Source: a virus (Duplodnaviria; Heunggongvirae; Uroviricota; Caudoviricetes). Taken from it: a stretch of 64,000 bases of DNA. The position numbers and the translations under genes were made by a program. This document shows positions 3,217 through 63,794 of the stretch, piece after piece. The stretch is taken from positions 3,877 through 67,876 of the IMG/VR virus record IMGVR_UViG_3300028603_000019; one strand, 5' to 3'. The notes beneath the pieces were generated by a model. The model saw only the letters and a list, made by a program, of their open reading frames with translations. It made no database searches and was not told where the DNA came from. How positions within the stretch are numbered: the stretch's first letter is position 1; each line of letters starts with the position of its first letter.

Positions 3217-3754
3217 GATTGAAACAATGATTGATCCTCTGGAGTTTGTCACCAAACACATCAGACTCTGGAGTAATTACGGTGAATTTAAATTTATGGT
3301 CCCAAACAAGGATCAAGAGGAAATTTTACGAGCTTATGAACGTGGCAATGAGCTAATTGCTCGCGTGCTTCCTAGGCAGGTTAGTAAGACTTCTGTTGCC
3401 ACTGCCATCCTTCTTCATTATGTGTATCACAACCCGGACAAGACTGTTGTGGTCTTGTCTCATACACTCCAATCGGCGGCTAGCATTTGTAGTCGTGTGG
3501 GCTCAATTCATGACGACTGCACACTCAAAAACATATTCCCCTTGATTAAGCGAAACAAATTTGAATTGGAATTTTCCAATCGAAGTAAAATCCTCTTCAA
3601 GTCTTGCAACTCAAATCTGAGGGGATATTCCATCGACTTTCTGTATGAAGATGAAGGGCAATTTTACAAACACACACCTGATGGTTTGCCGTTTTCCTTA
3701 ATTGATTCGGGTGCCCGTGTCCTACAGTTGAGTTCGGCTCGATATCATGCATGA
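3203..3754 (+). CDS. Truncated paralog of the terminase large-subunit ATPase domain
   Basis: LPRQVSKTS (Walker A-like) and LRGYSIDFLYEDE (Walker B-like); only 183 aa, no nuclease domain. Confidence 0.65.
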   Translation: MSMSEIETMIDPLEFVTKHIRLWSNYGEFKFMVPNKDQEEILRAYERGNELIARVLPRQVSKTSVATAILLHYVYHNPDKTVVVLSHTLQSAASICSRVGSIHDDCTLKNIFPLIKRNKFELEFSNRSKILFKSCNSNLRGYSIDFLYEDEGQFYKHTPDGLPFSLIDSGARVLQLSSARYHA

Positions 3755-6194
3755 TCGTCGTAATGAAGCCTACATGGGCAACAGCCTCATCAAAAAGGCT
3801 GGTGTCACGCATAACTTTACTCCAGATCAACTCCTCGAGCTGAAGAAGTGTGCTGAAGATGTAGTATATTTTACCGAAAATTACTGCAAGATCATCACTG
3901 TTGATCAGGGAATGCAGCTATTCAAGGTATTTGATTACCAGAAGAAGATGTTGAATTCCTTCACTGATCATCGTTTCAACATCTGCCTATTGCCCCGACA
4001 AATGGGGAAATGTGTCCATGGAGATACCATGATTGAGGTGCGCCACCGACCGTCTGACGCAGCTACCAGAATGTCAGTATCAAATTTCCATGATCATTTT
4101 ACTCAACCTATTTTACCTCTCGATCCCAAGTTCATCGAATCATTTGAGGTATCGGAATGGGAAGTGATGACGGATACCGGATGGGAAGAAATTACCCATT
4201 CTCATAAGACCATACCGTATCAAATATATACCGTTGTTACTTGTAGGGGTAAACACCTCTCTTGTGCAGATGATCATATTCTTTTTAGAGCTGATTATAC
4301 CGAGATATTTGTTCGAGACTTGGTTATAGGAGATGAAGTCAGAACCACAGATGGTGTCGAGGTTATCAAGGATATTTTGATCGGATATACTTTCGAGAAT
4401 ATGTACGACTTGAGTGTAAACTCAGATAATCACCGATATTACACGAACGGATTTCTATCCCACAACTCTACCGTTGTTGCAGCATTCATTCTTCACTATG
4501 CCCTGTTCAATCCGGAAAAGACCGCTGCCGTCCTGGCAAACAAGGCGGTTACTTCTCGTGAGATCCTATCCCGGATCCAACGTATGTATGAGAATCTTCC
4601 GTGGTGGCTCCAGATGGGGGTCAAGGAATGGAATAAGGGATCCGCACTCTTTGGAAACGATAGCAAGATTCTATCCGCCGCCACTTCCTCATCATCCATT
4701 CGGGGACAATCTATCAACTGTGTCGTAGGGTCTACCCCTGTTACGGTCAGGTCAAGGGATGGACAAGTTGTGAACCTACCCATCAAAGAAGTGTATCCCG
4801 ATCTATATGATGAGATTTTGACTCAAGATGGGTTCAAGAAGTTTGATGGGATCAGGTCTTCCTACAACACGGAATTCAAGCTTCGGATAAATGACAGGAT
4901 TACCGTGACCCCCGGTCACCAATTTCGGACCGCGGAGGGAATATTCAAGCGGGCCGCATGTCTGAATATCGGTGAAATGTTGGCAAATGGGATCCGAGTG
5001 GATGCCATACAAACAGTATTCAGTGAAGAATTTGTATATGATCCTGTTAATGTGAAAGATACCGCTTCATACGTCACGGGAGATTTCATATCTCACAACT
5101 GCCTGTATCTTGACGAATTTGCTCACATCGAACAACAAATGGAATTTTGGGAATCGACCTATCCGGTTATTTCCTCGGGCGATTCCACAAAAGTAATCAT
5201 CACTTCCACACCAAAGGGCCTGGAACTGTTCCATAAAATCTATAAAGAGGCCGAAGAGGGCAAAAATTCATTTGTCCCGATTCGGGTAGAATGGTGGGAA
5301 CATCCGAAGCGTGACGAGAAATGGAAAGAGGAGACTCTCAAGAACATCGGATATGAGCAATTCAAACAAGAGTTCATGAATGAGTTCCAAGGCTCATCGG
5401 GAACACTGATATCCGGCGAGAAATTGAGAGTGCTCTCCGAGTCTAATCCTATTCATTCGGCGGAGGGTATATACCAATACAAGTCCCCGATCAAGGGAAG
5501 ATCATATGTTCTGATCGCTGATGTGGGTGAAGGGAAGGGACTTGATTATTCAGCGTTCGCTGTCATTGATGTCACTGAAATGCCGTATCAACAAGTGTGC
5601 ACCTTCCGTGATAACCTGGTCGGGCCGATTGACTATGCTGCAATCGTGTATCGCATCGCAAAGCTGTATAATGAAGCGCAGGTGATGATCGAGATCAATA
5701 GCATCGGTGTCCAGGTGTCCGACACGATGTGGATGGACTATGGCTATGAGAATATGGTATCAACTGTCTCCGCCGGAAGGAACGGAAAGAAAATCAGCTC
5801 GGGTTTCGGGAAGAACGTCGATCGTGGAATCAGGACGACGCGGGGAGTGAAGGCAACCGGATGCAGTATTTTAAAACTACTGATTGAGCAGGATCAATTG
5901 ATCCTACATGACAAGTTTACCATCGACGAATTGAAGAAGTTTGCTCGGAAGGGGAATTCGTTCGAGGCCGAGAAGGGTGCTCACGACGATATGGTGATGC
6001 CCCTGGTCCTGTTTGCGTGGATGACCGAGCAAAGTTATTTCAAAGAAATGACCGATATTGAAACATTGAGATCACTTCGAGAACGGTCGGACGAGGAACT
6101 GGATGACTCATTGTCATTCTTCTTTGTTGATAACGGAATAGATGATCCGTTTGGACGAGATGAAGAAGTTGTGGAGACATGGATGGGATGGTAA
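3747..6194 (+). CDS. Terminase large subunit, T4 gp17-like, interrupted by two inteins
   Basis: LPRQMGK, LYLDEFA, IITSTPKG, QEF, DVGEGKGLDYS, HDDMVM motifs. Confidence 0.95.
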   Translation: MHDRRNEAYMGNSLIKKAGVTHNFTPDQLLELKKCAEDVVYFTENYCKIITVDQGMQLFKVFDYQKKMLNSFTDHRFNICLLPRQMGKCVHGDTMIEVRHRPSDAATRMSVSNFHDHFTQPILPLDPKFIESFEVSEWEVMTDTGWEEITHSHKTIPYQIYTVVTCRGKHLSCADDHILFRADYTEIFVRDLVIGDEVRTTDGVEVIKDILIGYTFENMYDLSVNSDNHRYYTNGFLSHNSTVVAAFILHYALFNPEKTAAVLANKAVTSREILSRIQRMYENLPWWLQMGVKEWNKGSALFGNDSKILSAATSSSSIRGQSINCVVGSTPVTVRSRDGQVVNLPIKEVYPDLYDEILTQDGFKKFDGIRSSYNTEFKLRINDRITVTPGHQFRTAEGIFKRAACLNIGEMLANGIRVDAIQTVFSEEFVYDPVNVKDTASYVTGDFISHNCLYLDEFAHIEQQMEFWESTYPVISSGDSTKVIITSTPKGLELFHKIYKEAEEGKNSFVPIRVEWWEHPKRDEKWKEETLKNIGYEQFKQEFMNEFQGSSGTLISGEKLRVLSESNPIHSAEGIYQYKSPIKGRSYVLIADVGEGKGLDYSAFAVIDVTEMPYQQVCTFRDNLVGPIDYAAIVYRIAKLYNEAQVMIEINSIGVQVSDTMWMDYGYENMVSTVSAGRNGKKISSGFGKNVDRGIRTTRGVKATGCSILKLLIEQDQLILHDKFTIDELKKFARKGNSFEAEKGAHDDMVMPLVLFAWMTEQSYFKEMTDIETLRSLRERSDEELDDSLSFFFVDNGIDDPFGRDEEVVETWMGW
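4011..4466 (+). mobile_element. Mini-intein 1 (152 aa, no homing endonuclease) in the terminase Walker A motif
   Basis: GK|CVHGDT...YYTNGFLSHN|S: N-terminal Cys, C-terminal His-Asn, +1 Ser. Confidence 0.92.
4719..5099 (+). mobile_element. Mini-intein 2 (127 aa) just before the terminase Walker B motif
   Basis: SIN|CVVGST...YVTGDFISHN|CLYLDEF: N-terminal Cys, His-Asn end, +1 Cys. Confidence 0.92.
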
Positions 6195-56112: not shown

Positions 56113-56132
56113 GTCGTGATCCTCCTGTTATG

Positions 56133-56206
56133 ACCTCCCAGGGCGATTCGAACGCCCGACCGCTCGGTCCGAAGCCGAGTGCTCTAGTCCGCTGAGCTAT
56201 GGGAGG
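56133..56206 (-). tRNA. tRNA-Arg(TCG)
   Basis: Cloverleaf, loop CTTCGGA, no encoded CCA. Confidence 0.85.
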
Positions 56207-56208
56207 GG

Positions 56209-56286
56209 TGGTCCTGCGGTGAAGATTCGAACTTCATCTTTCTGGTCCACAGCCAGACGTGCTTACCTTTGACACTACTGCGCAGG
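56209..56286 (-). tRNA. tRNA-His(GTG), A73, 2-nt insertion at the base of the acceptor stem
   Basis: Loop CTGTGGA, T-arm TTCGAAT, CCA end. Confidence 0.75.
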
Positions 56287-56293
56287 ATAGTTA

Positions 56294-56328
56294 TGGCGGA
56301 AGCGGAGAGGATCGAACTCTATGGCGGT
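56294..56328 (-). pseudogene. 3' fragment of a Ser-type tRNA (4-bp T stem, G73-CCA) fused to an IS right end
   Basis: AGAG-TTCGATC-CTCT-CCGCTTCC-GCCA with no matching 5' half found. Confidence 0.6.
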
Positions 56329-56371
56329 GTGAACTACCTGGAAACTGAAGATTTCCAGGCTTCCTCGGTCA
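56329..56371 (-). mobile_element. IS200/IS605-type right end, near-identical to 1851-1893
   Basis: 42/43 nt identity. Confidence 0.65.
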
Positions 56372-56545
56372 CTACAAGAGAGCCAAGGAACTTTTGACGA
56401 TTCAACGATACATATCTAGCAGGAGCTTGCGCTCCAACCCCGATAGAGGTATCTCCCCGTCCGTGACTTTCCGGCGTCCCACCGGTAGTTGGTCTCAATA
56501 GGTAGAATTATGGAACTTGGCTTTCGTTCCATGAGATATTATTTA

Positions 56546-56597
56546 GTCGATCCGTATCCGACAAACTAAAGATTTGCCGGTTTTGGATCACGTCCTT
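56546..56597 (-). mobile_element. IS200/IS605-type right-end variant related to 15652-15699
   Basis: 37/40 nt identity; hairpin retained. Confidence 0.55.
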
Positions 56598-56898
56598 GTA
56601 TAAGCGCCACGATCCGTTTAGCAAACGGTCTTGAGCACCAAGCTCAATTCTCACTTCCGATAGAAATTGGGATTATTTCTTATGGCGTTACTCCGATCAG
56701 CTAATTTACCAAACGCAGTAGGACTTTCAAGATAGGGTTCCAGTTTAGAGGTGGCTGCCGTAAATTCGTTGTCTGAAATCTTCCCCTCTTGATGGGCCTT
56801 TAGAAGTTTGTTTAATTGCATTGATGCCGCGCGGGGAGACATATAGGTTGTTCTAAAAGATTCAAAGGTAGGAAGGGCCATATTTTTCTCCTAAATTG

Positions 56899-56990
56899 TG
56901 GCGGTGCTCAGAAGAATCGAACTCCACACGGGGTTAACCGTGCCACCCGCTTTCGAGGCGGAGTCCTGCGACCAACAGGAATTGAACACC
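56899..56990 (-). tRNA. tRNA-Ser(CGA) with Sec-like 8/4 fold (allo-tRNA-like)
   Basis: 8-bp acceptor GGTGTTCA/TGAGCACC, 4-bp T stem, long D stem around TGGT, long variable arm, G73-CCA. Confidence 0.7.
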
Positions 56991-56995
56991 CTGAT

Positions 56996-57625
56996 CTATT
57001 TACATCGAATCAAGAATCTTCGTGCTTGAAATTTGTTCTCTCTACCCCAAGCATCACGTGCCGCAATCCAGGTAGCCAAATCTTGCTCTTGAGGGTCGTA
57101 CCAAATCACTTTCTTGAAATTCATGTCGGCAAAACCAACTTGGTAACCCTCGCGGGCCGCTCTTGTCATTTGAGTAATCCAGAAGGCTTTACCCCAATGA
57201 GTTTGAAGAGAATCGGACATAATGGTCCCATATTTCGGAAGCAGGTAGCCAAAGAACATCTTCCGGGTTAGATCAACAGCAGCGACTGAATTCATATCTC
57301 TCCAGAGCTTCACCTGGGTGACATACTGCCCGTGCTTGCCAAAGTTGTTTCGCTTAAAGTTGACCAGATATTCCACTTTACCGGAAGTCTTGTTGATCAG
57401 GACCAGATTTCCTGCCGCGTCATTTTCTGTGCGAAACAGGATTGTCTGCGGAGTATCGTGAAAGACCTCTTTTTGCTTCTTGAGGAACTCAACAGCTTTT
57501 GCTTTGTTCTTGACCTCGTTTCCAAGATTGAAGTCCACATCATCGACCAGAGCCGGTGATTCCCAAAGTAGGTCGCCCGATCTTCCTATCATATCTTGGG
57601 TAAATTCACTGAATGTTTGTCTCAT
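56996..57625 (-). CDS. Putative internal protein
   Basis: True start MRQTFSEF (the longer ORF overlaps tRNA-Thr); intact paralog of 54665-54931. Confidence 0.65.
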   Translation of the reverse strand: MRQTFSEFTQDMIGRSGDLLWESPALVDDVDFNLGNEVKNKAKAVEFLKKQKEVFHDTPQTILFRTENDAAGNLVLINKTSGKVEYLVNFKRNNFGKHGQYVTQVKLWRDMNSVAAVDLTRKMFFGYLLPKYGTIMSDSLQTHWGKAFWITQMTRAAREGYQVGFADMNFKKVIWYDPQEQDLATWIAARDAWGRENKFQARRFLIRCK

Positions 57626-57642
57626 GGCTTTTCCTTGAATTT

Positions 57643-57718
57643 TGGTGCCGATGACAAGAGTCGAACTCGCAACCTTCTCCTTACGAGGGAGCTGCTCTGC
57701 CATTTGAGCTACATCGGC
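57643..57718 (-). tRNA. tRNA-Thr(CGT)
   Basis: Cloverleaf, loop CTCGTAA, CCA. Confidence 0.9.
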
Positions 57719-57720
57719 AA

Positions 57721-57790
57721 GATGCCCCTAGGTCTCGAACCTGGATTTCATGGGCCAGAGCCATGCGTCCTACCGATTAGACGAAGGGGC
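57721..57790 (-). pseudogene. tRNA-Gln(CTG) pseudogene
   Basis: Loop CTCTGGC; 3' acceptor strand shortened. Confidence 0.6.
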
Positions 57791-58327
57791 AAATGTGAAG
57801 GCGGGACCTACGTGATCACCAAAAGATTTTTTGAAGGAAGATCCTTTGCCTTCAGATATTTCACCGAGATTGCACTTTGGCATATGCCTCTTGAGCAATC
57901 TCAACTTCCTTCTCCTTGGTCTTGCCGAGGATCAGAAGTAGTAGGGTCGAGAACAGGCCGAACAGGAAGCCTCCAAAGGCCCATCCAACGGCATTCCGAC
58001 CACGCAGATCGGCAAGATAGTAGTTGAGCCAAGCTACAAGGCCGGCCACAGCAAGCATTACGAGAATTTCCATTTTCACTCTCCGTTTGATACATTACAA
58101 GATTCAGTCCAAAGTGCCCAAGCACCAGCCGCGCACAACGCGATAGCGGATCCCAATAGGATCCCAGGAAGCACCACCATGTAGGCAATGCCCAAGATCA
58201 AGCTCAGGCCAAAAGACGGTTGCGGCTTGACAATGCTGAATGAAATTGCCGAGCAGAGGAACCACCAGGCAATGACCATCCAAGTTACAGCTTCAAGTTC
58301 CATTCAAACTTCTCCGCAAAAGTTTTG

Positions 58328-58401
58328 TGCCCCACCCCGGACTCGAACCGGGAACATCCGCATTTTGAGTGCGGCGACTCTACCAATTGGCCTAGCAGGG
58401 C
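58328..58401 (-). tRNA. tRNA-Leu(CAA), short variable arm
   Basis: Loop CTCAAAA, A73. Confidence 0.8.
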
Positions 58402-58471
58402 AAAAGAATATGACGGAACCTATTTGACCATGCGAAAAGTGTTTTGAAGGAAGGCTCTTTGTCACAATAAC

Positions 58472-58921
58472 TCAATAATAAACATCAACTCCTTGAATAT
58501 CCCGATCAAGGGCTAATGGAATTAACCATTTCAGATCGGAGACCACGGTCAACTCGTGAAGCTCACCAACCGAATACCATCCGACCGGTTCTTCCGGGCC
58601 TTCTGGATTGGTCACAGACTCGAATTTGTTTGTCCAGGTCCTGAAGTAATGGACGATATAATCCTCACCAGTATCATAGTTGGTTCCCTTGACTGTACAA
58701 AATCTTTCCCAACCGATCCAGTAAATTCCAGTTTCTTCCTGAAATTCCCTGGTCATTGCTACCATCCGATGTTCTGGCCAATCCACATGTCCGCCAATGG
58801 CATTCAGCTTGCCGCGGACACCCTCGGGTCCCTTGGTCTTCGACTTATGAATTAGAAGAACCATGATATCGGCAGTTACGGGATCTTCCGCGAACATAAA
58901 ACCAGCGACATATTCTTTCAT
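58472..58921 (-). CDS. Nudix hydrolase
   Basis: GGHVD...E...AMTREFQEETGI Nudix box. Confidence 0.88.
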   Translation of the reverse strand: MKEYVAGFMFAEDPVTADIMVLLIHKSKTKGPEGVRGKLNAIGGHVDWPEHRMVAMTREFQEETGIYWIGWERFCTVKGTNYDTGEDYIVHYFRTWTNKFESVTNPEGPEEPVGWYSVGELHELTVVSDLKWLIPLALDRDIQGVDVYY

Positions 58922-58972
58922 GAATTCAGTCCCGCGTCCATATCAATGATTTCATTTTTCCTTTGTAGGTTA

Positions 58973-59001
58973 ATCATAACTCAAGAACATCTAGATGTCA
59001 A
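58973..59001 (-). promoter_or_regulatory. sigma70-like early promoter
   Basis: TTGACA-17-TATGAT. Confidence 0.7.
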
Positions 59002-59016
59002 CCCGAAAACTTCAAG

Positions 59017-59087
59017 AGCGACCAGAGGGAATCGAGCCCTCGCCTCCTGCTTGGCAAGCAGGTGCACTGCCATTATGCGATGGTCGC
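59017..59087 (-). tRNA. tRNA-Gly(GCC)
   Basis: Loop TTGCCAA; T-loop CTCGATT atypical. Confidence 0.8.
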
Positions 59088-59088
59088 G

Positions 59089-59165
59089 TGGTGCCGCCGG
59101 TGGGACTCGAATCCACAACACATGCGCTCTCGACGCATGAAGTCTACCAATTGCTTCACGTCGGC
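59089..59165 (-). tRNA. tRNA-Leu(GAG), short variable arm
   Basis: Loop TCGAGAG, A73-CCA. Confidence 0.75.
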
Positions 59166-59172
59166 AAAATTT

Positions 59173-59248
59173 GTAGCCCTGGTCGGACTCGAGTCCGACA
59201 TACACCTCATTTTGAGTGAGATAGGAATACCAATTTCCATCACAGGGC
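59173..59248 (-). tRNA. tRNA-Leu(CAA) second copy, degenerate, short arm
   Basis: Loop CTCAAAA; T-loop CTCGAGT; U73. Confidence 0.6.
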
Positions 59249-59355
59249 CGAAATTAGACGTAAACAGCCTTGATAAGGCTGTTCTTTGGAAGAGATCAAA
59301 CTTCCCGAACACTCGTGTAACTACCATGGTGCACCATCTAAACCGTTATATTCCG

Positions 59356-59430
59356 TGGAGCCTATCGGGGTCGAACCGATCACCTCAAGCTTGCAAAACT
59401 TGCGCTCTCCCTACCATGAGCTAAGGCCCC
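59356..59430 (-). tRNA. tRNA-Ala(TGC)
   Basis: G3:U70, loop TTTGCAA. Confidence 0.9.
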
Positions 59431-59635
59431 GAAATTGACAATGCAAGGAGACCGGCGACAGGCCAAAATCCCATCTCGTATTGTCAAAGTTTGATCCCGT
59501 TCCTGCTTCTATGCCGTTCGGCGATGAAGACCTGCTCATCGTCTTACAAAAGGCTCCACAGGCATCACATCGGTGGATGATCATGCCTAGACTTCGGTGC
59601 GGCCCTAGGACGAATCCCGCACTTCTCATTCTATT

Positions 59636-59711
59636 TGGTCAGGGTGGTGGGGCTCAAACCCACGACTTCCGGGCTCCAAAGCCGGCACTCTATCAACTGA
59701 GCTACACCCTG
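59636..59711 (-). tRNA. tRNA-Pro(TGG)
   Basis: Loop TTTGGAG; T-loop TTTGA atypical; CCA. Confidence 0.8.
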
Positions 59712-59726
59712 AAATTTTCATTTTCG

Positions 59727-59801
59727 TCTCCCAGGAGGGATTTGAACCCCCGATCTCCTCCTTCCGAGGGAGGCAGCTTGACCAGACTTGCCCACTGAGA
59801 G
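59727..59801 (-). tRNA. tRNA-Pro(CGG)
   Basis: Loop CTCGGAA. Confidence 0.85.
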
Positions 59802-59938
59802 AAATGGGAGGGAGATGTCTCTGAAGCATTTCATCTCCTTCCTTTCAACCTGTGCCAGTCTCAACTTATCTTCCTAGTGTGGAAGTCGCGCCGATCAGGC
59901 AGCACGGTCTTAGAGTGACTTCTATGGTTCACCCACTG

Positions 59939-60157
59939 TCAAACTTCATCCGTATTACTATTCCAATACGAATATTCTTTCACGATGATCATCGGTTCTT
60001 TGAAGTCCACGTTGAAGACTTCTACCCGATCATACTAAATCACCAACTTGTTACAACGCACTTCCAGAAACGGCGAGACTTCATCGCTATGTGAAAATCT
60101 TACGACAGAATCCACGGGGAACTCAACAGTCTCTGGATATTGATCAGGAAAATTCAT
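59939..60157 (-). pseudogene. Small gene with an in-frame TAG at codon 41
   Basis: RBS AAGGA; MNFPDQYPE...KLVI*YDRVEVF...DEV*. Confidence 0.55.
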
Positions 60158-60178
60158 GGTTGTTTCCTTTCAAAAATT

Positions 60179-60255
60179 TGGCACCCCCGACAGGACTCAA
60201 ACCTGTAACCCAGAGATTAGAAATCTCTTGCTCTATTCAATTGAGCTACGGAGGC
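60179..60255 (-). tRNA. tRNA-Arg(TCT)
   Basis: Loop TTTCTAA; T-loop TTTGA; CCA. Confidence 0.85.
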
Positions 60256-60550
60256 AAAACTCGGCGCCACGCAATAAAGGTAAAATTGCTGCGCCGTGTC
60301 GGGGTTGATGAGACATGCTATACTCGCGCACTAACCGACTAATCGCAACACATTGGTGATAGTGGTATCACTGGGCGTGTCAACCCATTTCCTTACTTCA
60401 TGTATCATAGAAGAAACATTGAAGATCCAGGCCGGTGAGGTATCTGCCCCGCAAGGCGAGGTTGCCCATTCTCCGCTTACACCTTGGCCAAAGGCGCCCA
60501 CGCGACACGTCTGCCGATCGAGGCTTTCCTTACCTGGAAACTTCAAATTC

Positions 60551-60626
60551 TGGTCGGTCCCAAGGGAATCGAACCCTATTCTCGGGTGCTTCAAACCCGC
60601 GTGGTCACCAGTTCCACCAAAGACCG
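60551..60626 (-). tRNA. tRNA-Phe(GAA)
   Basis: Loop TTGAAGC; CCA. Confidence 0.8.
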
Positions 60627-60635
60627 AATATTGAG

Positions 60636-60709
60636 TTGCGAGAGGTTGGATTTGCACCAACGACCTCCAGAATATGAGTCTGGCGAGCTAACTCCTGCTC
60701 CACTCCGCA
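60636..60709 (-). tRNA. Initiator-type tRNA-Met(CAT), degenerate
   Basis: GTGGAGCAG...AGCTCG...CTCAT pattern of tRNA-fMet; T-loop TGCAAAT. Confidence 0.7.
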
Positions 60710-60710
60710 G

Positions 60711-60785
60711 ACCTCCCGGGGCGACTTGAACGCCCAACCTCTGGCTCCGCAAGCCAGTGCTCTATTCCAGTTGAGCTACGGAAGG
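60711..60785 (-). tRNA. tRNA-Arg(GCG)
   Basis: Loop TTGCGGA in an Arg-type body. Confidence 0.8.
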
Positions 60786-60792
60786 GGAAATT

Positions 60793-61161
60793 TCAGATTT
60801 TCTTGATCCGGTCGAGGACATATCTCACATCATAGAAACTGCCCTCAAGTTTCCACACTTTCATCAGCAAATCGTGATTAATCTTGATCCAGTCATAGAT
60901 GTCTTCCAACGTGGAAGTTTTCAAATTTGCACGATTCTGTCCGATAACTCTTGGTTCATGAGAAACCGTGATGATAGTGTATTCAGAATTCCCGGGATGG
61001 CCAGCATAGACCTTGATTCTCGGCCCGTGTCTGGAACCTTTCCCGTGTGAGATGTAGATTACCTTGTCCACGCCAGTGATATCCGACGAGACATTTCCCA
61101 TTTCATCCAGAACTTCGGCTCTCATAGCCTGTTCAAGAAGAAAATCTCGAAATGGTATCAT
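60793..61161 (-). CDS. DUF4160-like protein, putative internal protein
   Basis: Starts MIPFRDFLLE; HGPRIKV...WIKIN..LL..W. Confidence 0.55.
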   Translation of the reverse strand: MIPFRDFLLEQAMRAEVLDEMGNVSSDITGVDKVIYISHGKGSRHGPRIKVYAGHPGNSEYTIITVSHEPRVIGQNRANLKTSTLEDIYDWIKINHDLLMKVWKLEGSFYDVRYVLDRIKKI

Positions 61162-61314
61162 GGTGGAATCTCCGATCAATTGAGAGCGGATAGTGGGGAT
61201 CGCAATTATACAGTTTCCTGCTCATCGGTTCCACGATACGAAAGAGCCATATCACTTCCGCGACTGTAATCGGGTAATTTCTCCGATGATGTCCTCTACT
61301 CATTGAGAACTTCG

Positions 61315-61396
61315 AGCGACCGGCGGGGATCGAACCCGCGGAACCTATTCGCCTCTTGCTTGGAAGGCAAGTGCTCTACCACTGAGCTACGGTCGC
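61315..61396 (-). tRNA. tRNA-Gly(TCC) with enlarged variable region
   Basis: Loop CTTCCAA; about 10 extra nt before the T-arm. Confidence 0.75.
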
Positions 61397-61411
61397 ATGG
61401 TTAACTTTGTT

Positions 61412-61485
61412 TGGCAGGGGCACCAGGAATCAAACCCGGACCAGGAGGGTTGGAAGCTCCTGTGCTATCACTACACCATACCCCT
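61412..61485 (-). tRNA. tRNA-Trp(CCA)
   Basis: AGGGG acceptor, G73-CCA, loop TTCCAAC; T-loop TTTGA. Confidence 0.8.
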
Positions 61486-61901
61486 CAAAAGTTCTGTCTC
61501 GTGCCTCTCGGCAGTCTCGATCTAAGGTCGTCTCTACATTGACTAATATGACGTTTCGGATGTCATATTGGTTGTATCTCATAACATACAACAGCGATCC
61601 TACTTTTTGCCGGTGAATCAACTGAAGTTGTGTTTATCAGTCGATTCGAATATTTGGTGGAACATGACTGTAACCATCAAATAGATAGATTATAGTTTAA
61701 GAAGCACGAGACAGAAATTGGTCCGCCCTAGGTCAACCGTCAAAAGGACAGCCAACCTTGTCTTAATCATGATCGACGGACAATCACGAAGCATCAGATT
61801 GCACATAATTTAGGATGGGACACGCAATCTGCAAATCCCCATCCCCGCCGAACGGCTTTAGACCGCCGGGAATAATGTTGGTAATCTTGATCCAACTTTG
61901 T

Positions 61902-61976
61902 TGGTAGGTCCTATCCGAATCGAACGGATGCGTGGTGCTGTGTAAAAGCACTGCCTTACCACTTGGCGAAGGACCC
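61902..61976 (-). tRNA. tRNA-Val(TAC), atypical body
   Basis: Loop TTTACAC, A73-CCA. Confidence 0.7.
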
Positions 61977-62065
61977 AAATAATCAACTCCTGAATCGAAC
62001 AGGCCACTCGGCTAATGCCAAGCTGAGACTCCACTCTCGGCGTGCGCTGCGCCTTGTTGAAACTA

Positions 62066-62139
62066 TGGCAGAGTGGACGGGACTCGAACCCGCCTTTCCG
62101 GTTAGACAGACCGGAGCCTTCCCCGACGGCAACCACTCC
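62066..62139 (-). tRNA. tRNA-Asp(GTC)
   Basis: Loop CTGTCTA, G73-CCA. Confidence 0.85.
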
Positions 62140-62147
62140 ATATTCTG

Positions 62148-62222
62148 TACCCCGGGCGAGACTTGAACTCACAACCTTCTCCTTATGAGGGAGCTGCTAC
62201 TGACCGATTGAGCTACCAGGGC
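62148..62222 (-). tRNA. tRNA-Met/Ile2(CAT)
   Basis: Loop CTCATAA. Confidence 0.85.
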
Positions 62223-62274
62223 AAAAATTGAGCAACCGCGACTTATGGATTTGTCATCCCGCACGGTCAATTAT

Positions 62275-62342
62275 GAGTTCGGCTCAACTGCGCACTCTCA
62301 TATGCAGCGACTTAGCCTGTTGATGGCGAACAGGTACCGTAT
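62275..62342 (-). ncRNA. Three-way-junction motif, copy 1 (directly 3' of tRNA-Gln)
   Basis: ATACGGTA-hairpin-CTAAGTCG-hairpin-GAGCCGA. Confidence 0.6.
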
Positions 62343-62419
62343 TGGCTGGGAGGGGCGGACTCGAACCGCCAATCTCACGGAGTCAAAGGCCGGGATCTTA
62401 CCAATTAGACGACCTCCCA
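62343..62419 (-). tRNA. tRNA-Gln(TTG)
   Basis: TGGGAGG acceptor, loop CTTTGAC, CCA. Confidence 0.8.
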
Positions 62420-62424
62420 ATGTT

Positions 62425-62509
62425 TGGTGGGAAGCAGTGGAATCGAACCACACCCTTTTACAGAACGGTTTTACAGACCGCGTATGGCTACCAGCCAATG
62501 ATACTTCCC
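62425..62509 (-). tRNA. tRNA-Tyr(GTA)
   Basis: Loop CTGTAAA, long variable arm, unusual D-arm. Confidence 0.8.
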
Positions 62510-62515
62510 AAGTGT

Positions 62516-62591
62516 TGGTGCCTCCACTCAGCCTCGAACTGAGATTGCCGGGTTACAAAGCCGGTGTTCTGCCAAATTGAACTATGAAGGC
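62516..62591 (-). tRNA. tRNA-Thr(TGT)
   Basis: Loop TTTGTAA, CCA. Confidence 0.85.
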
Positions 62592-62596
62592 AAATT

Positions 62597-62673
62597 TGGT
62601 CCCCTCGGCGAGATTCGAACTCACAACCTCCTGATTCTAAGTCAGGCGACTATGTCATTTTGCCTACGAGGGG
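62597..62673 (-). tRNA. tRNA-Leu(TAG), short variable arm
   Basis: Loop CTTAGAA, A73-CCA. Confidence 0.8.
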
Positions 62674-62685
62674 CAATATTTTCAG

Positions 62686-62779
62686 GGGCGATGCCCAGGA
62701 AATCGAATCCTGGTTATGTGGTTGCCGCCACACTCTCCGTTCGGCAAAACGCGAGATTCACTCACCAGAGGCATTCCCC
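62686..62779 (-). pseudogene. Irregular Sec-like/allo-type tRNA remnant
   Basis: CTC-TGGT-GAG D-arm, long variable arm, TTCGATT T-arm; anticodon arm irregular. Confidence 0.45.
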
Positions 62780-62783
62780 TTTG

Positions 62784-62857
62784 TCTTCCCAGCAGAACTT
62801 GAATCTGCAACCTGCGGTTTAGGAAACCGCTGCTCTTTCCATTTGAGCTATGGGAAG
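62784..62857 (-). tRNA. tRNA-Arg(CCT)
   Basis: Loop TTCCTAA. Confidence 0.85.
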
Positions 62858-62884
62858 TTCGGTCTTTCGTCTACATTAGTCAAG

Positions 62885-62957
62885 CTCCCCTCCCCGGCCA
62901 CGATCCAGGAACCTTCAGATTAACAATCTGCTGCTCTACCAATTGAGCTAGAGGGGA
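62885..62957 (-). tRNA. tRNA-Asn(GTT), degenerate T-arm
   Basis: TCCCCTC acceptor, loop TTGTTAA, T-loop ATCGTGG. Confidence 0.7.
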
Positions 62958-62974
62958 CCACTTGGTAGTGGATA

Positions 62975-63040
62975 GTGATTGGCTCTAGAGCGGCATACGA
63001 CTCCGACTTAGTTGCTGTCACCTGCCCAGCAATACCGAAT
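62975..63040 (-). ncRNA. Three-way-junction motif, copy 2
   Basis: ATTCGGTA-hairpin-CTAAGTCG-hairpin-AGAGCCAATCAC. Confidence 0.6.
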
Positions 63041-63206
63041 TTCTCGTGTCAACGGGACTTGAACCCGACCCCCCATCCCTTTCGTACCATCAGGTCCTAC
63101 TCGTTCTGGTGTGCTCCAATACACTATTTCCACTTGAACCGCCCTCATGTCTCCATGTTCGAATGCGGGCGGAACTGCCAAGAGGAGCTACCTCTCAGCA
63201 GGCGAT

Positions 63207-63270
63207 GTGATTGGCTCTGAGAAAGGTCTCTAATCTCGACTTAGCCCAGCTTCCCTGCTGGGTACCGAAT
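63207..63270 (-). ncRNA. Three-way-junction motif, copy 3
   Basis: ATTCGGTA-CCCAGC..GCTGGG-CTAAGTCG-..-AGAGCCAATCAC. Confidence 0.6.
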
Positions 63271-63794
63271 CTGAAAGCTTGTCACAAGTGAAATCATATT
63301 CTTGACCCCTCAAACACCGTAAGTGCCGCAAATGTCTGCGGAATATGATCCCACGTGAAACAGGCTTTCGCAAAGAACCGTTCGGGCACGTTCGCCAGAG
63401 TTGGTTCTCTGTTTCAGGTTCGTCATCGGAATTTCTTCCTAGAACCACAAGGAGCAAATTGTCAAAGAGCGGCAAGACGGTCGTTGGCGCTAGGCGCTTT
63501 CTCTGTCTCTATGGTTAGACTTTATGCCGATTCGCGGCAGATGGCAACCAAAATTTTCGGTCTACGGTAGAAAAAATTATGGCCCGGAAGAGTGGTTATC
63601 TCCGCCGGGCCATGTACTAGGTACTGAAAAGATATTTGAGTGAAATTCCTTTCCGCGTCTCCTACATGGCCCCATTCAATCTGCCAGGACGATAATTCCC
63701 TGCAAACCAAACTTGCTGACTATCTGTGGCGAGGACGTGTATAAGCACGGATCAAATATCCCAGTTGAAATTTCTATACATACTTAGTCGCGAA

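Follow-up and report, generated by a model that had tools for sequence, protein, structure and literature searches.

Extra stable RNAs in phage tRNA clusters, such as species 1 and 2 of bacteriophage T4, have been known since the 1970s; we know of no function that has been found for either of them. In the T4 genome (NC_000866), species 2 (rnaD) is located at 71053-71171 (-) and species 1 (rnaC) at 70908-71046 (-), and rnaD starts 1 nt past the CCA of tRNA-Arg. The theta ribozymes, which resemble the ribozyme of hepatitis delta virus (HDV), adjoin tRNAs of uncultivated phages, 77% of them within 1 nt of the tRNA 3' end (PMC10879173), and CCA is encoded by only 4.5% of the tRNAs with theta ribozymes (Kienbeck et al. 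2024, PMC10879173). From IMG/VR, 8,495 unnamed 'DNAVirus_X' RNA models have been reported, some of which are tRNA-like (Fremin et al. 2023, PMC10690425). Here we report on motif A, a three-way-junction RNA repeated in the tRNA array of an uncultivated tailed phage. We analysed a stretch of 64,000 nt (positions 3,877 to 67,876 of the IMG/VR record IMGVR_UViG_3300028603_000019; hereafter the window, with position 1 as its first letter). The evidence gives good support to motif A as a real, conserved and undescribed family of structured RNA tied to phage tRNA arrays, for which the two T4 RNAs are the closest parallel.

The tRNA array, with 26 tRNAs called by ARAGORN on the minus strand (56132-62957), is located towards the 3' end of the window. 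As a whole, the record represents a complete virus genome of 210,571 bp with 33 tRNAs. A preliminary description of this DNA had proposed at least three copies of the motif on the tRNA strand and a diverged fourth. Employing the pattern CGGTA-N(12-30)-CTAAGTCG-N(10-30)-GAGCC, we found three exact matches in the window, all on the minus (tRNA) strand (62281-62339, 62981-63037 and 63213-63267), and none of 100 shuffles matched the pattern. The three copies were thereby confirmed, and they are all that the 210.6-kb genome contains. Both variable segments of the pattern form hairpins (P2 and P3), whose sequences are different in each of the three copies.

From 5' to 3', copy 1 consists of CGGUA, P2 (CCUGU..ACAGG), CUAAGUC, P3 (G-CUGC..GCAG-U), U-GAGCC and the tail GAACUCAU. 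It had been described as directly following the CCA of tRNA-Gln(UUG), which ends at 62343, and a spacer of 3 nt indeed separates the two. In copy 2, P2 is UUGCUG..CAGCAA, P3 is G-GAGUCG..CCGCUC-U and the tail is AAUCACUA; 23 nt lie between its GAGCC and the start of tRNA-Asn. In copy 3, GGU (63266-63264) can close the structure with GCC (63215-63213) as helix P1, while P2 (63262-63245) and P3 (63237-63219) are connected by the joining strands A (63263), CUAAGUC (63244-63238) and AGA (63218-63216) and followed by the tail AAUCACAU (63212-63205). The minimum-energy fold of copy 3 contains P1, P2 and P3 as in the assigned structure. Coordinates and scores are given in Table 1.

Table 1. Motif A, motif B and neighbouring features at the 3' end of the window (R1, covariance model built from motif A; R2, model for motif B)
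Feature	Position in window	Strand	Evidence
Motif A copy 1	62273-62339	(-)	Exact pattern; R1 49.7 bits, E 1e-12
Motif A copy 2	62973-63037	(-)	Exact pattern; R1 60.0 bits, E 7e-16
Motif A copy 3	63205-63267	(-)	Exact pattern; R1 55.5 bits
Proposed fourth copy, not a member	63481-63553	(-)	No R1 match, no R2 match; promoter scan
Motif B, between copy 1 and tRNA-Met	62230-62275	(-)	R2 44.7 bits, E 9e-12
tRNA-Met(CAU), start ~7 nt past the end of the motif B match	62147-62222	(-)	ARAGORN; R2 for spacing
tRNA-Gln(UUG), CCA encoded, upstream of copy 1	62343-62419	(-)	ARAGORN and Rfam tRNA model
tRNA-Asn(GUU), downstream of copy 2	62884-62957	(-)	ARAGORN and Rfam tRNA model
Sub-threshold tRNA-like element, upstream of copy 2	63045-63133	(-)	Rfam tRNA model 24.6 bits (cut-off 29); no ARAGORN call

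The exact pattern was found in 93 stretches of IMG/VR, about 35 of which showed both hairpins, and nearly all of those 35 lie in tRNA arrays. Further copies in these contigs, recovered by the covariance model R1, deviate from the search pattern: CUAAGUC is replaced by UUAAAUC or GUGAAUC, or CGGUA by UGGUA. Scans were added for the UUAAAUCG form, with the closing helix left free, with the junction left free, and of the JGI metagenomes; all 23 distinct matches from the JGI scan were real. In total, R1 collected 81 instances from uncultivated-phage loci of IMG/VR and from JGI metagenome loci, 73 of them distinct, at 23.6-75.6 bits. A relaxed viral pattern gave, among the matches listed, mostly chance occurrences and at least one real copy. 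In prokaryotes (one genome each, ~185,000 species) there were 67 pattern matches and none with the hairpins. R1 found no match over the whole records of T4, the Sinorhizobium phages phiM12 and phiN3, and cyanophage S-CREM1. BLAST against GenBank phages with a consensus-like copy and with motif B also found none; this is a weak test, because BLAST requires long exact words. So far, motif A is found in phages only, and only in uncultivated ones.

No family of Rfam 15 matched any copy in the window, either at the gathering score or at E<=10 (8.5-kb and 1-kb slices), and only tRNAs and noise were returned; the RNA thus remained unassigned, as the preliminary description had supposed from the ribozyme consensus sequences. 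No description was found in the literature, which was searched for the motif string and for RNAs of tRNA arrays. The DNA comes from landfill metagenomes: the stretch is present in two sequencing runs only, both of landfill-metagenome DNA, and no RNA run is listed among the runs that contain it. The window also contains, at 52.7-53.0 kb, a TerD-associated RNA family, which is separate from motif A and gave no R1 match.

Based on the 73 distinct sequences, we examined the pairing of P2 and P3. Paired cells amounted to 98.5% versus 84.5% in shuffles, double-change cells numbered 98 versus 14.7, and every slid register dropped to 11-41% paired. Compensatory changes occurred in 4 of the 4 modelled pairs of P2 and in 3 of the 4 of P3. 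RNAalifold independently predicted the three helices of motif A. In an unbiased scan for mutual information with average product correction (MI/APC), the top seven pairs of columns comprised the six variable helix pairs and, at rank 4, positions 1 and 5 of the longest junction strand. The two hairpins differ in sequence and keep their pairing, as had been noticed from the three copies of the window, and they fold around an invariant core: about 20 nucleotides of the junction and the ends do not change across the family. The family-wide covariance search that had been suggested as a check returned covarying arms and an invariant junction.

The closing helix P1 consists of GGU with GCC, 3 bp, of which the two G-C pairs are invariant. 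In 33 of the 33 instances obtained with patterns that left these positions free, the closing GG and CC were kept, and the sole U-to-C change in this helix retains pairing with G. Because this helix is only 3 bp long and never varies, covariation does not prove it, and it is plausible but unproven. The preliminary description had the ends paired over a longer stretch with a bulged C. Such pairing (AUUcGG/CCAAU) can be drawn in copies 2 and 3, but not in copy 1 or in the family, where only GGU/GCC is constant and the flanking columns are mostly A opposite A. We also rejected a fourth pair, C13 with the A that follows GCC, at which the combinations (CA 33, UU 2, CU 1, CG 1, UG 1; n=38) are inconsistent with pairing.

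Three strands of 1, 7 and 3 nt make up the junction, namely A between P1 and P2, YUAARUC between P2 and P3, and AGA between P3 and P1. When the junction was left free in the search, the copies recovered still carried CUAAGUC or UUAAAUC. At positions 1 and 5 of the 7-nt strand, C..G occurred 56 times, U..A 16 times and G..A once, with no mixed forms. This correlation may go back to two ancient types of paralogue instead of many separate changes, because C..G and U..A forms co-occur in single genomes. Past GAGCC there is a conserved A/C-rich tail with the consensus AAACACAU. Its C located six nt past GCC (window 63207, 62975 and 62275, minus strand) is invariant in 73 of the 73 distinct copies, the distance to the next tRNA varies, and the MI/APC scan gave no partner column for the tail.

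ARAGORN called 449 tRNAs at distances of up to 1.5 kb from the 73 copies, all of them on the strand of the motif and 0 on the opposite strand. Of the 73 copies, 28 have the 3' end of a tRNA 3-12 nt upstream, most commonly that of tRNA-Asn, and 32 have the 5' end of a tRNA 9-14 nt past GCC, most commonly that of tRNA-Pro. Altogether, 46 of the 73 directly adjoin a tRNA at one end or both, and for 70 the nearest tRNA is no more than 700 nt away; for 27 there is no ARAGORN tRNA within 20 nt. The adjoining tRNAs are varied (Asn, Pro, Met, Arg, Gln, Ser, Tyr, Gly and Lys). Ordinary tRNAs in the motif-bearing arrays are separated by CCA plus 4-10 A-rich nt. Since ...GAGCCA plus an A-rich spacer mirrors these tRNA-tRNA spacers, motif A fills its slot by the grammar of a tRNA gene. 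Every instance is located in a tRNA array and has the orientation of its tRNAs.

These distances bear on the possibility that motif A is a cis-acting processing or insulator element, serving the adjoining tRNAs only, whose junction would guide or block host RNase P, RNase E and exonucleases or prevent tRNA misfolding. Its tight spacing to tRNAs on either side, the presence of several copies per genome, each near tRNAs, and a conserved A/C-rich tail that would be the 5' leader of the next tRNA are all consistent with such a role. GGU:GCC also resembles the way in which RNase P RNA and T-box RNAs contact N73-C74-C75 of tRNA. On the other hand, only 1-4 of the 20-40 tRNAs per array carry motif A, the identity of the adjoining tRNA varies, more than a third of the copies have no ARAGORN tRNA close by (the 27 above), and the invariant tail C is kept at a fixed distance from the motif but not from the tRNA. 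We consider a purely cis-acting element unlikely.

Among complete motif-bearing phages (195-519 kb), there are 1-4 copies per genome, and the genome of the window, with 3, falls within this range. The window encodes a T4-type large terminase, a tail sheath and a portal, and homologues of the portal (28-67% identity) were found in 4 of the 4 complete motif-bearing genomes. The closest cultured phages are the Sinorhizobium phages phiM12 and phiN3, with 56% portal identity. The only neighbour proteins common to motif-bearing loci were NUMOD3 homing-endonuclease-like and PP-loop open reading frames, none of which occurs in this window. As antisense targets of the arm loops, the phage's own genome offered only chance 9-13-mers.

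The breadth of the family bears on two further explanations, a decayed tRNA and a functionless chance repeat. Motif A does occupy tRNA slots, and its GCCA end is like that of tRNA-Asn or tRNA-Gln. As a tRNA or tRNA pseudogene it was rejected: there was no ARAGORN call, the three copies gave no match to the Rfam tRNA model (RF00005), and no cloverleaf signature of a D or T arm is present. Against a chance repeat stand the 73 distinct copies, the compensatory changes, the invariant core, the divergence of the carrier phages and the empty shuffles. Both explanations are refuted for practical purposes, and we leave them a negligible probability.

A ligand-sensing riboswitch, or another leader of a protein gene, would likewise combine a conserved junction with variable arms, as aptamers do. 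The neighbours of motif A, however, are tRNAs or other RNA modules rather than open reading frames, with no consistently associated downstream coding gene; there is no expression platform and no match to an Rfam riboswitch. The mRNA leader was rejected on these grounds and appears very improbable.

The preliminary description had likened motif A to the theta ribozymes of tRNA 3' trailers. Both are small structured RNAs on the tRNA strand beside tRNAs of uncultivated phages. The theta ribozyme, however, folds into an HDV-type double pseudoknot, whereas motif A is a three-way junction; the tRNAs upstream of motif A encode CCA and are separated from it by their 3-12 nt, and motif A is equally often found upstream of a tRNA. 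No HDV-family model of Rfam matched at E<=10. We therefore rejected motif A as a theta or HDV ribozyme, in view of the wrong fold, the lack of an Rfam match and a position that does not abut CCA-less tRNAs, and the analogy fits poorly.

The type III hammerhead offers a closer comparison in architecture. As in this ribozyme, the ends of motif A close a three-way junction with strands of 1, 7 and 3 nt in the same cyclic order, C-U are the first residues of the 7-nt strand, and the first arm is preceded by an NUH-like GUA. In the catalytic core, however, G5, G8, A9 and G12 are replaced in motif A by A, U, C and A, respectively, and A15.1-U16.1 by G-U, so that of the hammerhead core (CUGANGA, GAA, A15.1-U16.1 and H17) only C3, U4, A6 and H17 are matched. 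Covariance models of the hammerhead found no match at E<=10 in the 8.5-kb and 1-kb slices. The three helices and the lengths of the junction strands agree, but on the core residues and the model search motif A was rejected as a hammerhead.

Whether motif A represents a new class of ribozyme, which would divide the tRNA precursor into units by self-cleavage, is a separate question. Small ribozymes, too, combine a small three-way junction and variable arms with an invariant core. The strand order and the GUA just described point in the same direction, and so does the covariation of junction positions 1 and 5 (C-G / U-A), which recalls the C3-G8 pair of the hammerhead. There is also a precedent beside phage tRNAs (PMC10879173). 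Yet the core CUAAGUC / AGA plus the G-U pair lacks G5, G8, A9, G12 and A15.1 of the hammerhead, and even at E<=10 there was no match to any ribozyme model of Rfam. A cut would yield no usable tRNA end, because the upstream tRNAs already encode CCA 3-12 nt away. A ribozyme role for motif A has no support, and we regard such a class as quite doubtful.

The closest parallel is provided by rnaC and rnaD of T4. Like motif A, they are RNA genes other than tRNAs that a T4-type phage carries in its tRNA cluster, in the orientation of the tRNAs and adjoining them. By eye, rnaD reads as a hairpin CCGG..CCGG, UAAGUCG, a helix and ..CACC(A), which is the order of P2, YUAAGUCG, P3 and ..GAGCCA in motif A; rnaC reads as GG..CC followed by GUAAGCCGA and resembles motif B (see below). 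The T4 RNAs are longer, 119 and 139 nt versus roughly 55-95 nt. Neither R1 nor R2 matched in the T4 region or in the whole T4 record, and because the models miss T4 we take the resemblance of rnaD as likeness, not membership. BLAST found relatives of rnaD in T4-like phages only, mostly those of enterobacteria (735 records). The 5' block of rnaD is invariant across five divergent T4-like phages and, for that reason, beyond covariation testing. The candidates of Fremin et al. share with motif A the data source and the nature of short covarying RNAs of uncultivated phages. Motif A may be among the 8,495, and the text of PMC10690425 describes no three-way-junction motif of tRNA arrays.

We favour, with about even confidence, motif A as a co-transcribed small RNA gene that occupies tRNA slots, is freed by the tRNA-processing enzymes and serves as a binding or decoy RNA through its junction and GCCA-like end. 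Such a gene for a small structured RNA of ~55-95 nt, in tRNA-sized slots of the arrays of large T4-superfamily phages, would be transcribed inside a polycistronic tRNA precursor. Its 5' side would be released by an endonuclease and by exonuclease trimming past the CCA of the preceding tRNA, and its 3' side by RNase P cutting at the 5' end of the next tRNA. In the resulting three-way junction, GGU/GCC would bring the ends together, P2 and P3 would be scaffolds of free sequence and length, and the function would be carried by the invariant single strands A, YUAARUC and AGA together with the tail. The stable RNA would then present the junction and the GCCA-like end to a partner, either protein or RNA, from the machinery of tRNA maturation or of tRNA-end recognition; hence it would be a binding or decoy RNA, not a self-cleaver. 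By analogy, this proposal draws on the precedent of rnaD and rnaC in like slots.

Several points weigh against this proposal. Transcription, processing, stability and any partner of motif A are what we infer, and the neighbouring genes yielded no candidate protein partner. The closing helix that would join the ends has only 3 bp and is invariant. The invariant tail C suggests that trimming back to CCA does not by itself produce the functional RNA. A cis-acting element would be equally compatible with several copies per genome directly beside tRNAs, and a junction with some 20 invariant nucleotides is typical of catalytic cores no less than of binding sites. Bolder readings, which we put forward tentatively and hold to be improbable, are that motif A is either a new self-cleaving ribozyme punctuating phage tRNA precursors, or a mimic of the tRNA 3' end (GCCA), with GGU clamping its own CCA-like end, that acts as decoy or cofactor for acceptor-end enzymes or host defence toxins; it could then be a small, widespread counterpart of T4 rnaD.

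Next to copy 1 there is a second conserved module, motif B, which is distinct from motif A and uncatalogued. Its parts in the window are an outer helix, a bulge of 2 nt, an inner hairpin (GGAU..AUCC) and, on the 3' side, the internal loop AUAAGU; the consensus has an inner GG..CC hairpin and a 3' internal loop RUAAGN. Compensatory changes were found in 5 of the 9 pairs of motif B in an alignment of 9 copies, and the window and locus L041 have an 18-nt core in common. In 8 other phage loci (L003, L028, L041, L052, L053, L218, L228 and L231), motif B lies directly 5' of motif A. The window differs in this respect, with motif B 3' of copy 1 and just upstream of tRNA-Met. In UUAAAUC-type copies of motif A (L028 378-446, L228 and L231), P2 bears a 30-nt insertion that contains a small hairpin and then UAAGUCC, and this insertion is a nested version of the theme of a hairpin plus UAAG. 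As far as can be judged by inference, the hairpin followed by UAAG in motifs A and B and in both T4 RNAs may be a common building block.

The proposed fourth copy at 63481-63553 did not hold up. R1 gave no match at E<=10 even with the filters turned off, R2 gave none either, and the resemblance to motif A is limited to a hairpin followed by UAAAGUC. A promoter scan placed a sigma-70-like match, TTGCCA-17-TAAAGT, at 63547-63519 (-), overlapping this segment. This promoter-like site could be the start of the array transcript. Just before it, a GC-rich hairpin (GGCCCGG..CCGGGCC) followed by a U run was seen by eye at 63572-63612 (-), and it looks like the terminator of an upstream unit. The scan tool did not list this hairpin as a terminator, and its loop is possibly too long for the tool.

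The tRNA-like remnant that had been noticed ahead of copy 2 corresponds to the sub-threshold element of Table 1, possibly a tRNA that is unusual or has decayed, and copy 2 starts 7 nt past it. Between this element and copy 3 lie about 70 nt (63134-63204, minus strand) with a long hairpin, CCGCCC..GGGCGG, that no tRNA or Rfam model matches. This segment starts ~9 nt past the GAGCC of copy 3, at the position expected for a tRNA. In tRNA arrays of related phages (L014 1399-1473 and L017 4949-5026), there are tRNAs with a CUA anticodon, labelled 'Pyl' by ARAGORN, which are possible amber suppressors. Elsewhere in the window, the large terminase (3747-6191, plus strand, 815 aa) gave a weak intein-splicing match, below the cut-off, at residues 374-413, where an intein may be inserted.

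Motif A is a compact and sharply defined member of a hidden class of tRNA-cluster RNAs and spans phages with portal identities down to 28%. Its small size provides a workable handle on the non-tRNA RNAs of tRNA arrays, its invariant junction offers clear mutational targets, and the copies in related phages supply natural variation. If motif A is catalytic or mimics a tRNA end, it would represent a new RNA mechanism in the conflict between phage and host over the translation apparatus; if it is merely a processing aid, it would still establish a new rule for the maturation of long tRNA arrays.

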